The translations under genes were made by a program, and so were the position numbers. From Nanobdellati archaeon (GTDB lineage: Archaea > Nanobdellota > Nanobdellia > Woesearchaeales > GCA-2686295), in NCBI GenBank assembly GCA_014384375.1, contig JACNFY010000017.1, forward strand, positions 1-63,060: a stretch of 63,060 nucleotides of DNA, in the 5' to 3' direction. Of this stretch, positions 53,769 to 63,060 are shown one piece after another (the stretch's first letter is position 1; every line of letters begins with the position of its first letter). The notes beneath the pieces are model-generated. The model was not told the DNA's origin, made no database searches, and saw only the letters and a program-made list of their open reading frames with translations.

Positions 53769-55535
53769 GTGAAGGCCACGAAGATATACTCGGTTGGTAA
53801 GCTAAATTTAAGCACATTTCTTCTGTTAGTTATTTTGAGTGTTTCTATCTTCTCTGCTGCGACTAATATAACTTTGAATGACAATATTTCTTACAATAGT
53901 TCTAATAATTCATTAAATATAACTTTGAATTTATCTTTCAATAATACTTTAGTAAATACTTCAATAAACATTACCAACACAACCACGATTAATGAAACAA
54001 ATGTTTCAGTCAATCTGTCTTCTAATAAAATAAAAAATATTCTTCCGCCTGGTTTATTGAAAAAGCTTCATAAGGACTTGGAGGGTTTATCTTATGAAGC
54101 AGAGGCAAAGGTTATTGTTCAGTTAAAAGATAAAAATTCAAGACACAAAATCAAGGATAAAGTAATTAAAGGAAAATCAAAAATTAGTAGAGATAGGAAC
54201 TTTATTTTTGCAGATGCTTTTGGTTCTGATGTTGTAGATGTTGTTTCTGATGAAGATGTTGTTATGGTCTGGCCTGACTTGGAGGTTACATCTTTCTTGG
54301 ATGATGCAGTAGACCAGATTCATGCAGACAGCCTATGGAATTTTAGTTTGAATGGCTCAGGTGTTAAGATAGCTGTATTGGATACAGGCGTTGATGCTTC
54401 TCATGAAATGCTTAATGGCAGGGTTATTTCTCAGGTTGATTTCACAGGTTCAGGCACTGGAGATTTTTATGGCCATGGAACCCATGTTGCAGGCATCGCT
54501 TCAGGAAACGGGTTATATAAGGGAGTAGCTTTTGATTCTCAGATTTATGATGTGAAAGTTCTTAATGATGAAGGAGTTGGTTATCTTTCATGGTTGATTG
54601 ATGGTATTGATTATGCCATTAGTGAGAATGTTGATGTTATATCTCTTAGTTTAGGAGCTATTTATTCAGGCACTCCTGAAAACCAGCTTAATAGTCCTGA
54701 AATCCTGAAAATTGAAGAAGCAATAAGCAACGGCATAACAGTTGTAATAGCCTCAGGCAACTGTGGCAGTGGTGTTTGCGGCGGTTTTGAAGGAGTCACC
54801 ACGCCAGGCATTACTCGTAATGCAATCACCGTTGGAACAGTTGATGACGCCAATGAATGGGCATACTTTAGTTCTGGAGATACAATTGATGATTATGTTA
54901 AGCCTGATATGGTTGCTCCGGGTGTTGATATTTGTAGTGCGGTTCCTTTAGATTATGATTGTAAGACAGGCACTTCTATGAGCACTCCCTTTGTCAGTGG
55001 AGCAGTTGCTTTGCTTTTACAACATAATAGTTCTTTGAATCCCACACATATTAAAGACATATTTGAAGATGGGGCTCTAGATTTGGGCGATTCTGGCAAG
55101 GATGTTCTTTATGGTAGCGGTCTGCTTGATTTGAGCAATCTAAACTTTGAGATTAGCCCTGTTGAAATAATCCCTGATGAGTATACTATCTCCTTTTCTG
55201 ACTTTGAGATTAGAAAAGAAGGCAAAGTTACTATAATATACCACAACAAAGAGACCTGTTACAGGAAAAAAGACTGCAAACCAAGAAAAATCAAAGTAAG
55301 ATTTGAAAGCGAAGAGCTAGACCGCACATTCCAATCAGAGAAAACCAAAACAATCCCAAATGACAAATACAAATCCTATAAATTCAAGACAACCTTCAAC
55401 CTGCCAGGCAAACACCTGCTCAAAATAACAATCGAAGAAGACAACGAACTAATCGAAGAAATAAACACCTTCATAGACGTAAAATCAAACTTTTTGGTTA
55501 ATTCATTAGGCACATTGAGGTTAAAGATAAGATGA
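53769..55535 (+). CDS. Secreted subtilisin-like S8 serine peptidase
   Basis: Signal peptide, Asn-rich stalk, I9-like propeptide, catalytic VLDTG / HGTHVAG / GTSMSTP, C-terminal beta-rich domain. Confidence 0.95.
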   Translation: MKATKIYSVGKLNLSTFLLLVILSVSIFSAATNITLNDNISYNSSNNSLNITLNLSFNNTLVNTSINITNTTTINETNVSVNLSSNKIKNILPPGLLKKLHKDLEGLSYEAEAKVIVQLKDKNSRHKIKDKVIKGKSKISRDRNFIFADAFGSDVVDVVSDEDVVMVWPDLEVTSFLDDAVDQIHADSLWNFSLNGSGVKIAVLDTGVDASHEMLNGRVISQVDFTGSGTGDFYGHGTHVAGIASGNGLYKGVAFDSQIYDVKVLNDEGVGYLSWLIDGIDYAISENVDVISLSLGAIYSGTPENQLNSPEILKIEEAISNGITVVIASGNCGSGVCGGFEGVTTPGITRNAITVGTVDDANEWAYFSSGDTIDDYVKPDMVAPGVDICSAVPLDYDCKTGTSMSTPFVSGAVALLLQHNSSLNPTHIKDIFEDGALDLGDSGKDVLYGSGLLDLSNLNFEISPVEIIPDEYTISFSDFEIRKEGKVTIIYHNKETCYRKKDCKPRKIKVRFESEELDRTFQSEKTKTIPNDKYKSYKFKTTFNLPGKHLLKITIEEDNELIEEINTFIDVKSNFLVNSLGTLRLKIR

Positions 55536-60377: not shown

Positions 60378-63060
60378 ATGTTTAAGAAAGAGATTTGTTC
60401 CATCGGACTGATTATGTTTCTTCTAGCCATAACTCCTGTGTATGCAAGAATACATACTGATGCACCGGTTGGATCAGAATTGGATTATTTAATTCCAGAA
60501 TGGGACAGACTTCCGTTTAAGGACCAGAGATATAACGCAAGTTGGATTGATTATGTAAATTCGGCTTATGGTGTTAATTGGGAGAAGCCATCAAATCCAA
60601 GAGTACCAAAGTGCCTAAGCTATGGTGCGGCAACAGTTAATGATTGGGTAAAATTAACCACAGGTATGACCTTAGGAACTTACTCAAATTTTGTAAACAA
60701 TCGAACTGAAAATGGGACAAATCCACGGCTGCTCGAATCAATCTATCATGATTCTTCTCCTTCTATATGTTTTATAGTACCAACTCTCACGTATTGCTAT
60801 GCTGCATTTTATAGAGATAGCGTGACAGGTGAAAGAGTACCTTTTAACACAAAAGGTTATGCTGATTTGTTAACTAATCCTCCTTCAGATTGGTTATACG
60901 AACCAGACCCGATAATATCAGAAATTAATTATGATGTAATGAATGGTGATCTTTTAGATGGATATGAATTCATACCAATAGATACAAACGCCGAAAGTTT
61001 GAAAGAAGCAATTAGAAAATATGGGATTATTTATGCACACATGACCTTTTTAGAAATTCCAGAATTTTTCTTTCCTCTTCACGCTATTACTCTTATTGGA
61101 TATAATGATACGGATTCTTCTACAGATTTTTGGGCTCATGATAGTTATGATGGAGAGGATTTCAGTAATTTTTCTAGGTATAGTATTGTTGACCAATCAG
61201 AAATTGACACTGCGTGGGCATTTTTTGATCCTCAGTGGCCTACCTATAGACATGACAATCGAAGAACTGGCTCTACTACTTTCAAAGGTGACTTATCCAA
61301 CGAAACAAGCCCTGATGACTTCACTTTTCCTGGTGATGGTCAGACTGATGGCTTGGATCATCCGGCTTTCGCTGACTTGGATGGTGATGGCAAACAAGAA
61401 ATTATTGTGGGCACTAAAAACAGTGTTTATATTAATAATGCTTCAGAGAACAGAGGCAGGGTTTTCGCCTTGTATTCTGATGGAAGTGGATTTGACGATG
61501 ATTGGACTACTACTGAGGGTGAGACTGATGTTGGTTTGTATCTGCCTGTTATTGGCACTCCGACAATAACTGATATTAATAATAATGGTGATAAAGAGAT
61601 AGTGTTTGGGGATATATATGGTCGTTTCTGGGTTCTAAACAGTCAGGGTGCTCCTGTATTAGAGTACCCGTATTATATCCATCCAAGAGAGAAGGATAAT
61701 TCCACGAGAATCACAAGATGGGCTGTTGAGGATATTGATTTGGATGGTGTTAAAGAGTTGTTGTTTGTTGAACGCTCGAATAATTTTTCTTCTTTAGCTG
61801 GTTTCGATGCAAAGATATACGCTTATAATCTTTCTGGGGATGAATTAGTTGAGGAGTGGTCTGCTCCTTTAGGAACTGCTTATGCTTATGGTACTGGTAG
61901 TAGTAATGGTGATCCTGCTATTGCTGATTTAAACAATAATGGTTCTATGGAGATTCTTGTTGGTACTGTCTATGACGGTATAAGAATGTATAATGGTGGT
62001 AGTGGCAGTTTGATAACTAGTTTTAATTTTAATAGTGCTGCTGGTCCTGTCACTATTGCTGATATTGACAGGGATAACAAGTATGAATTTATTTTCAACA
62101 CTAATTGTGTTACTGGAGCTTCCTGCAGCACCATTCCTAGTTTCAATGCTACTTTTGTTTTCAGTGGTGAGGATAACACTCAAGAATGGAATACTACAAC
62201 TTCGAGTAATTGGTGGCCTTATGGTCCTGTAGCTGTTGCTGATTTGGTAGGTGATTCAAAATTAGAAGTGGTTGTTGCTTTGAATAAAAATTGGAACCCT
62301 ACTGATGGTAAGATTGTAATACTTAATAGTTCTGATGGAAATGAGCTTTACAGCTTTACTGAAAGCGGCTCTCTAGACACAATTCAGAGCGCTGTAATCG
62401 CTGCCGACATTGATCAGAGTTCTTCTGGTAAAGAAATATTGTTTATGACTGAAGATGGGTATTTATATGTTTTAAGCAATACTGCTCAACTGCTTTGGAA
62501 AAAGTTTATTTCAGCCACTCCAACAAATGGTCCTATTGTTGGCGACTTTGATGGTGATGGCAGTGCAGAAGTTATACTCTCTCATAAAGGGTCAATTGAA
62601 GGAAGTTCTTTCTCTGCTGAAGAGCTTGAAATGTTCAATAAATGGAAGGTTTTGCATAAATATGTAGATGTCTATGGCAAAGGAATATTGGAGGAGAATG
62701 GCATTGACCTTTCTGCTTCTATTTTCAAAGCACATTCAATATCAGGAACCTCTATTGAAATCATCGACGGCCTAAACCATCAACCAATACTTAACAACCT
62801 AGACGACATCATAACAATCGAAGGAAATCTTGTTCAAATTAACGCTCAAGCAACTGATGAAGATGGCGACAATATAACTTATTATTACAGCTCTCCGATT
62901 AATTCTTCTGGTGTTTGGGAAACAACTCATGGCAACAGTACAGGAACTTATGAGATTTTAATAACATCGAGTGATGGAAACCTTTCAGATTACCAGCTTA
63001 TAACCTTAACTATGCGAAAGAAAGTGTATAGCGAAGTGACATATGTCACTAGTTGCTTTT
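60378..63060 (+). CDS. Secreted papain-fold head + extended FG-GAP beta-propeller + Ig/cadherin-like domain; runs off the window end
   Basis: Absent from ORF track because no stop is reached. MFKKEICSIG signal peptide, KCLSYGAA, HAITLIGY, WAHDSY, WPTYRHDNRRTG, many FG-GAP repeats, NHQP...ATDEDGD...SDG; frame checked at start, middle and end. Confidence 0.85.
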   Translation, partial: MFKKEICSIGLIMFLLAITPVYARIHTDAPVGSELDYLIPEWDRLPFKDQRYNASWIDYVNSAYGVNWEKPSNPRVPKCLSYGAATVNDWVKLTTGMTLGTYSNFVNNRTENGTNPRLLESIYHDSSPSICFIVPTLTYCYAAFYRDSVTGERVPFNTKGYADLLTNPPSDWLYEPDPIISEINYDVMNGDLLDGYEFIPIDTNAESLKEAIRKYGIIYAHMTFLEIPEFFFPLHAITLIGYNDTDSSTDFWAHDSYDGEDFSNFSRYSIVDQSEIDTAWAFFDPQWPTYRHDNRRTGSTTFKGDLSNETSPDDFTFPGDGQTDGLDHPAFADLDGDGKQEIIVGTKNSVYINNASENRGRVFALYSDGSGFDDDWTTTEGETDVGLYLPVIGTPTITDINNNGDKEIVFGDIYGRFWVLNSQGAPVLEYPYYIHPREKDNSTRITRWAVEDIDLDGVKELLFVERSNNFSSLAGFDAKIYAYNLSGDELVEEWSAPLGTAYAYGTGSSNGDPAIADLNNNGSMEILVGTVYDGIRMYNGGSGSLITSFNFNSAAGPVTIADIDRDNKYEFIFNTNCVTGASCSTIPSFNATFVFSGEDNTQEWNTTTSSNWWPYGPVAVADLVGDSKLEVVVALNKNWNPTDGKIVILNSSDGNELYSFTESGSLDTIQSAVIAADIDQSSSGKEILFMTEDGYLYVLSNTAQLLWKKFISATPTNGPIVGDFDGDGSAEVILSHKGSIEGSSFSAEELEMFNKWKVLHKYVDVYGKGILEENGIDLSASIFKAHSISGTSIEIIDGLNHQPILNNLDDIITIEGNLVQINAQATDEDGDNITYYYSSPINSSGVWETTHGNSTGTYEILITSSDGNLSDYQLITLTMRKKVYSEVTYVTSCF

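Follow-up and report, generated by a model that had tools for sequence, protein, structure and literature searches.

Polymorphic toxin loci of the Rhs/CdiA type with their orphan toxin-immunity modules are the closest known systems (Zhang et al. 2012; PMC3150448, PMC3967940, PMC4436062). Reviews on archaeal polymorphic toxins describe, in their accessible text, C-terminal toxins only (PMC6393860); nanoarchaeal surface proteins are reported to evolve fast (PMC6142677), and VCBS propellers are the subject of other papers (PMC8023676, PMC9218822). In this study, we analyzed a gene array in the genome of a Nanobdellati archaeon of the order Woesearchaeales, in which different predicted enzyme domains ("heads") precede one shared FG-GAP propeller ("tail"). 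The window, i.e., the entire contig C21 (63,060 bp; JACNFY010000017.1), belongs to a 1.27-Mb genome of 39 contigs that is 95% complete. As in Rhs/CdiA, the enzymatic domain at one terminus is variable and the rest of the protein conserved (here heads that are PLC-like, papain-like, or of the S8 type), while in the array this domain is N-terminal and directly follows a Sec signal peptide, in contrast to the C-terminal toxin of Rhs/CDI proteins. A search of the available literature library resulted in no paper linking FG-GAP with DPANN or Woesearchaeota and in no description of such a locus.

The array forms a single, tightly packed operon on the + strand reaching from 53.8 kb to the end of the window. 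It is opened by a gene for an S8 subtilase (53769-55535; N-terminal hydrophobic segment, Pfam Peptidase_S8 with E 4e-49), the stop codon of which overlaps the start of a headless FG-GAP stub of 125 aa, here named rem (55532-55909). Three units follow, each with one or two small membrane genes upstream of a head-tail gene, namely m1 (55906-56181) and H1 (56181-57968, 595 aa), m2 (57971-58273) and H2 (58270-59607, 445 aa), and m3a (59604-60023) and m3b (60030-60374) together with H3 (60378-63005). Genes overlap or nearly abut: rem, m1, H2, and m3a each begin in an ATGA that also contains the stop codon of the gene before, and the remaining junctions lie within 0-6 nt. H1, H2, and H3 share one plan, consisting of a signal peptide, a head of about 285-340 aa, the motif W(P/S)TYRHDNxRTG, and FG-GAP repeats. 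In H1, a Zn-PLC-like head extends to 57194, and the tail from Trp codon 57195 is truncated after four loops (tail hidden Markov model (HMM) positions 1-240). H2 carries a papain-like head and a tail that begins at Trp codon 59185 and is truncated after two loops, and H3 combines another papain-like head with an eight-loop tail from Trp codon 61236 and a PKD-like C-terminal domain. A first-pass annotation made from the letters alone had proposed such a membrane gene(s)-head-junction-tail unit, repeated three times after a headless remnant, and open reading frames (ORFs), junctions, and a four-copy repeat all agree with it.

Heads and tails of the array differ in their relationships. Within the array, the tails of H2 and H3 are 77% identical and their heads 47%, while the H1 tail is 51-54% identical to the H2 and H3 tails and its head comes from an unrelated family; rem shares 70% amino acid identity with the H2 tail and 63-64% with the H3 tail. 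Between genomes, heads are more similar than tails: the H1 head is 55% identical to that of relative P0014 at a tail identity of 32-36%, and for H3 and P0077 the respective values are 51% and 34-38%. No foreign tail was more than 43% identical to that of H1 or H3, and P0027 reached 53% to H2. When 42 tail starts were placed in a maximum-likelihood tree, all four from the window fell into one clade (100/100 support). In the papain-head tree, an approximately unbiased (AU) test rejected a clade of the H2 and H3 heads (p 0.003), the former grouping with P0027, P0028, P0113, and G129 and the latter with P0024, P0077, and P0254. The head diversity claimed in the first-pass annotation was partly retained: a Zn-PLC-like and a papain-like type were confirmed, but the two papain-like heads, listed there as separate types A and B, are homologous, though in different sub-clades.

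Traces of recombination were detected close to the head-tail junction. A tract of 125 nt is shared by H2 (59215-59339) and H3 (61266-61390) with three mismatches (97.6% identity), begins just past the RTG codons, and points to recent gene conversion or recombination. Synonymous divergence (dS) between both genes is about 0.3 in the tract, about 1 in the remaining tail, and saturated in the heads, and the W-motif codons of H2 and H3 differ at synonymous sites. In the related locus L051, units D and E have heads with 10-30% amino acid identity, while from the W motif on about 85 tail codons are 92-100% identical at the nucleotide level. These tracts support recombination just after the junction, and the tail clade together with the AU test on the heads supports that heads of different catalytic type, as classified by sequence, sit on one recently shared tail. 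Mapped on the tail tree, head type required 18 changes, compared with a mean of 17.4 for shuffled labels, and well-supported sister tails with different heads were P0014/P0028 (100/99), L049/P0077 (99/92), and P0016/P0027 (97/88). Relatives do not have an invariant arrangement, which is how exchange could have been refuted, and the scatter of head types over the tail tree supports frequent head exchange among them.

For the position of incomplete copies, 51 genome loci were fetched, and 37 loci (32 of those and five from a genome search) plus the window were scanned in six frames with our own HMMs. Strict criteria yielded 17 full genes in 16 foreign loci; tests for stubs required at least 300 nt of sequence upstream (n = 15) or at least 1 kb downstream (n = 14). 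A separate head or tail fragment was found upstream of 9 of the 15 full genes and downstream of none of the 14. Tail stubs were 98, 91, 84, 84, and 59% identical to the neighboring full tail, and head fragments 40-52% or without match. Many stubs of relatives are scraps of 50-100 aa, and their lengths are heterogeneous, some ending within the head, which looks like decay of displaced copies and not like a maintained reservoir. Locus L051 contains an array of five units that is likewise opened by an S8 gene (4613-6121); the S8 proteins of both arrays are 49.5% identical over 477 aa, and both stops overlap a 5'-truncated unit. In relatives, a module recurs that begins with the gene of a secreted protein and continues with those of a small membrane protein, of the head-propeller protein, and of a PKD or LamG surface protein. 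Taken together, tail tree and stub positions show that heads were re-assorted many times onto related propellers and that displaced copies accumulate on the 5' side only, and we file the locus as a putative polymorphic modular effector locus of reversed polarity in an archaeon.

The head type of H1 had 107 homologues, typically of 900-950 aa with FG-GAP/VCBS tails, although many comprised only 330-530 aa despite lying on long contigs. Those with a named source were mostly labelled Woesearchaeota, Nanoarchaeia, or Nanoarchaeota, and database names of the members are generic ("FG-GAP-like repeat-containing protein", "VCBS repeat-containing protein", "hypothetical protein"). Versions headed by S8 (P0040, P0004) also occur, and S8 is an internal domain in related proteins as well. 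Among 400 other genomes of the order, the papain head was identified in 5 and the PLC head in 7 (including the unpublished genome G322); seven genomes of the same family revealed neither head, and both heads together were found only in the genome of this study, where the array is the sole locus of the head-propeller family. Word-index searches for relatives of the papain head resulted in four and nine matches, and a metagenome scan with this head in four loci, none with an array.

In the tail HMM, Trp codons 57195, 59185, and 61236 all correspond to position 1, as expected from the earlier claim that the heads join the tail at the same motif, and a direct-repeat search recovered the four tail starts as DNA repeats spaced by 1699, 1990, and 2051 nt. 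Pfam domains FG-GAP/FG-GAP_3 were found in rem, H1, H2, and H3 (FG-GAP_3 with 71.2 bits in H3). Counts of Ca-loop motifs were eight in H3, four in H1, and two each in H2 and rem (tail HMM 17-121), so that by motif count the predicted H3 propeller has enough loops to close a ring of 7-8 blades and those of H1, H2, and rem are incomplete. The tails of rem, H1, and H2 break off at HMM positions 121, 240, and 129, respectively, and each stub runs on for another 3-10 codons, across the Shine-Dalgarno region that serves the following membrane gene, before its stop; that copies break off at different points straight into this region had been described in the first-pass annotation. Its statement that only the last copy keeps a long tail is correct insofar as H3 alone does so, but H3 is not shown to be complete, its ORF being open to 63059 with the 3' end unassembled. 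The junction motif is not specific to the locus: W-x-[TM]-[FY]-x-H-D-x-x-R-T-G is present in 56 of the 150 best FG-GAP matches to the H3 tail, directly after signal peptides, internally, or C-terminally. From this distribution, the motif is a generic one with which the first strand of propellers of this class usually begins, and it marks a domain boundary, not a dedicated recombination site. When the sequence ahead of the membrane genes was searched for a specific recombination site, it contained only an A-rich stretch with GGAGGT or GGTGAT, as is ordinary around ribosome-binding sites.

Similar peptides (..KGD.L* or ..IGG...*) end the stubs in L045, L051, L060, L050, and the window (55880-55909 and 59585-59607). 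These ends are alike because each ORF runs across the ribosome-binding site (GGTGAT or GGAGGT) in front of the membrane gene that follows. Two other explanations of the stubs were rejected. Joining by read-through or by another genetic code fails because a membrane gene and not a tail follows each stop, and the S8 protein is not the lost head of rem, since both lie in different frames, no W motif occurs upstream, and the counterpart of rem in L051 starts inside a PLC head.

Truncation by faulty assembly had been named as a way in which the proposal could fail. Logan contigs of run X6 span all three truncation junctions without any difference (55260-56257, 57536-59265, and 59292-61316), and contigs of X7 and X8 bridge two junctions each. 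The bridging runs come from two studies, neither flagged as a possible source of the window DNA; since contigs from other studies bridge the junctions exactly, the truncations are not assembly errors. One weak joint (56194 to 58030) was present in X7, its side of 23 letters being under the caution limit of the tool. Contigs of X7 and X9, from different studies, match the window up to 54073 and 55972 and then share the same unlike sequence; these loose ends may reflect strains that differ in the left portion of the array. Among the listed sequencing runs holding window sequence, there was no RNA run.

Concerning the heads themselves, a profile of the H1 head family (11 sequences) matched solved PC-PLC structures (8cqm with E 3.6e-6, 1ah7 with 4e-5). 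Residues H35, D87, H100, H170, D174, H180, H186, and E195 are invariant in all 11 sequences and align with the Zn-site region of PC-PLC. Of the nine metal ligands that we take PLC to have, eight possess conserved counterparts in the H1 head, the N-terminal Trp ligand lying outside the comparison. Against PF00882, the H1 head scored 14.1 bits, under the gathering threshold of 26.8. For the H2 and H3 heads, no Pfam family matched, and their profile weakly matched chains of the C1 papain family only (31 matches, best E 0.009). An AlphaFold model of the papain-like head of H3, based on a 20-row alignment, reached a pLDDT of 81.4 and a pTM of 0.80, and Foldseek with this model resulted in 146 PDB matches at E<=1e-3, the listed top matches all being members of the papain family, e.g., cathepsins, Der p 1-like allergens, cruzain, and Cwp84. 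According to this model, the papain-like head indeed has a papain fold; the nearly invariant residues Cys79 and His235 are its putative catalytic pair. A language-model atlas placed the papain-like head near C39-like clusters, which we regard as a lead only. Searching the PDB with individual head sequences gave marginal matches only, and NCBIfam revealed no significant match for heads or membrane proteins. A lack of catalytic folds, which would have spoken against enzyme heads, is at odds with both the PC-PLC profile match and the papain-fold model.

We consider it somewhat probable that the array is an accessory surface locus in which cassettes are replaced by tail-anchored recombination and displaced copies persist as eroding upstream stubs. 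The products would be proteins secreted via Sec, each with a hydrolytic head, a Ca-loop FG-GAP/VCBS propeller, and a PKD-like domain, accompanied by an adjacent small membrane protein. The 5' cassette of membrane gene and head would turn over, and the propeller would be retained: in the simplest mechanism, one crossover in the conserved tail would set a different cassette before the resident tail, and the displaced predecessor would remain upstream as a stub, cut where its non-homologous end was joined. Short gene-conversion patches would keep the junction-proximal part of the tails alike, and the stubs would erode afterwards under the genomic deletion bias. Architecture, folds, the conflict of head and tail trees, recombination tracts, and upstream-only stubs are found in the data as described above; the direction of events, with the newest unit last, and the import of cassettes from other strains are what we infer from them. 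As to its role, the propeller might bind the envelope of a host or neighbor, which the head might then degrade.

Several points weigh against cassette replacement and have to be set beside the most serious alternative, an in-situ paralogy followed by decay. In this alternative, an old (partial) tandem duplication, upstream trimming, and conversion of the tails only would have produced the array, with no import and with functionless stubs. The H2/H3 tract is a short internal patch inside a longer homologous region, typical of gene conversion, and conversion between old tandem paralogues could alone make tails alike and heads unlike. Partial tandem duplication of a membrane gene with the 5' part of the following gene would give an upstream truncated copy in one step, while headless stubs require a second deletion event under cassette replacement. 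The tiny scraps seen in many relatives would likewise suit simple decay. Furthermore, locus L055 has two full-length units, and L064 (Nanoarchaeia; 6297-7901) contains two PLC-head fragments but no full gene within 10 kb and appears to be fully decayed. The related genomes in which stub positions were counted are kin and not independent samples, and the structure model of the PLC head was poor (11-row alignment, pLDDT 48.6) and was not used for a fold search. Finally, a comparison of runs, akin to the strain comparison suggested in the first-pass annotation as a way to find alternative head-tail junctions, came out negative: in contigs of four runs, a material in which rare variants are dropped, neither an alternative head-tail joint nor a link between an upstream stub and the H3 tail was seen.

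Nevertheless, paralogy with decay does not account well for the heads. The H2 and H3 heads lie in different sub-clades and each find their closer relatives outside this genome, as indicated by the AU test, while the H1 head is not related to either. If partial duplication were random, headless copies would be expected downstream as well, but none was seen behind the 14 full genes, and head type is scattered over the tail tree across genomes. Altogether, we rate this alternative as rather unlikely as a full account, while part of what is seen can be attributed to gene conversion between old paralogues.

The small membrane genes bear on the question of whether the array is a toxin system. All four belong to one family, here named MEM, with 25 members in the set of loci. 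Members share an amphipathic W(K/R)(K/R)LxxWQKG motif at the N-terminus and transmembrane helices rich in glycine, and their loop often contains C...GE-x-C; Pfam searches with 22 members found no family common to more than one of them. By iterated HMM, m1 (with the N-terminal WxxLxxWQKG), m2, and m3b were assigned with E 2e-19, 6e-18, and 1e-24, respectively; m3a is a variant with an extra N-terminal transmembrane hairpin and is 53% identical to the product of L050 9059-9472. In the strict count, a MEM member lies at most 500 nt upstream of 8 of the 15 full genes, and six members are on the opposite strand. MEM genes are found with heads of both the PLC-like and the papain-like type and with an S8-PLC fusion, and the most similar pair in the window is m1, in front of the PLC head, and m3b, in front of a papain head. 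In contrast, papain-type genes in G129, G143, and G386 are associated with unrelated small membrane proteins, MEM being absent by HMM. A complex prediction of H3 (residues 25-876) with m3b resulted in a score of 0.28 (mark 0.32), which counts neither for nor against binding.

In its broadest form, the idea would be a mirror-image polymorphic effector system in DPANN, in which cassettes of a small membrane protein and an N-terminal hydrolase head circulate in populations and homology-anchored recombination places them before a conserved FG-GAP propeller, with stubs as expressed or re-deployable spares and a membrane protein that protects or anchors the producer; if true, the range of host or competitor envelopes open to attack by a strain would depend on the locus. 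We regard this as unlikely as a whole, although the core of the first-pass proposal, head swapping in mirror image, agrees with the conflict of head and tail trees, the recombination near the junction, and the upstream-only stubs; cognate immunity is not supported, and a maintained reservoir and a toxic role are putative. Even less probable is the strict version, in which the heads would act as toxins on competitors or hosts, each membrane protein encoded upstream would confer cognate immunity, and selection would keep the stubs as a reservoir for re-deployment by recombination with the full tail. The layout does mirror Rhs/CDI orphan arrays, the H1 and H2 heads are intact ORFs with predicted catalytic residues, and the frequent upstream position of MEM genes and the size of the family would suit such partners. 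However, one MEM family with both head types, including the close pair m1 and m3b, does not fit head-specific immunity, as the earlier designation of the membrane proteins as cognate would imply; the unrelated membrane proteins beside other papain-type genes, the six members on the opposite strand, and the lack of any re-deployed joint in the contigs of the four runs also speak against it. The MEM proteins possibly act as an anchor or helper. That the stubs are functional short isoforms, i.e., enzymes with 2-4 blades acting free or oligomerizing into a closed propeller, is highly improbable, since the open frames of rem, H1, and H2 coupled to their neighbors and a nonsynonymous divergence (pN) of 0.13-0.17 between rem and H2, far below the synonymous value (pS) of 0.5-0.98, are opposed by the heterogeneous stub lengths of relatives, some ending inside the head, and by the fact that a low pN/pS may predate truncation.

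The end of the window is formed by a multi-copy repeat of 55 nt (63006-63060) with a hairpin core, at which the assembly breaks, and H3 lacks at least about 40 residues compared with a homologue. A search for the missing C-terminus on the other contigs of the genome did not find it and resulted in generic PKD-like matches only. The repeat carries the hairpin GTGACATATGTCAC and a T-run; identical copies are located in C3 (28481-28535) and, inverted, at both ends of the 8.2-kb contig C4 (605-640 and 8179-8216), and contigs C2, C12, and C36 carry, about 44 nt from their ends, a sister repeat that has this core as well. The 55-nt repeat may mark where a mobile element ends, or it may be an intergenic repeat resembling a terminator. 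Elsewhere on the contig, very long ORFs were found at 414-7643 (2409 aa) and 34165-37425 (1086 aa). Small genes on the minus strand (52869-53499) are located directly upstream of the array; one of their products (83 aa) we take by eye to be similar to ribosomal protein L37Ae, and if so, core genes directly adjoin the accessory array.

The ways in which DPANN archaea attach to other cells and exploit them are poorly understood. In this respect, the locus offers a testable set of secreted predicted hydrolases, each fused to a binding propeller of the integrin-like kind, a family of small membrane proteins tied to them that had not been described before, and, in the combination of upstream-only stubs with conflicting head and tail trees, a genomic signature of repeated head replacement. 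If an exchange of cassettes in populations is confirmed, the logic of polymorphic toxins would extend to archaea with reversed polarity, and the array could serve as a strain-level marker of host range.

Compared with Rhs/CdiA loci, further parallels are the displaced modules that retain a piece of the conserved region beside the main gene (here rem, H1, and H2, in mirrored position), one small gene per module, and recombination in the conserved part as the presumed engine. In contrast to these systems, the orphans of the array are located upstream, the accompanying gene belongs to one membrane family whatever the head, without head-cognate co-variation, and the heads are predicted lipid or protein hydrolases, not nucleases or deaminases, in an archaeal host. 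With Zn-dependent PLCs such as Bacillus cereus PC-PLC (1ah7; 8cqm), the H1 head shares the profile match and conserved counterparts of the ligands, while it is larger (about 310 aa), contains insertions, is fused to an FG-GAP propeller, and has a sub-threshold Pfam score. The papain-like head resembles members of the papain family (C1), including the S-layer-associated Cwp84 of Clostridioides difficile (4ci7), in its predicted fold (Foldseek E 3e-6, probability 1.0), and Cwp84 likewise joins a cysteine protease to a binding domain; in contrast to that family, the head has no Pfam match, TM-scores of 0.4-0.56, an identity of 10-16%, and no evident propeptide. In the pilE/pilS and vlsE systems, gene conversion draws on silent cassettes, partial copies without promoter or start that lie beside one complete expressed copy. 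The array is similar in that partial copies adjoin a complete one and a short conversion tract is present, but its partial copies come with start codons and signal peptides of their own and with complete enzyme domains, and the copies differ by an entire domain family rather than by epitope segments.

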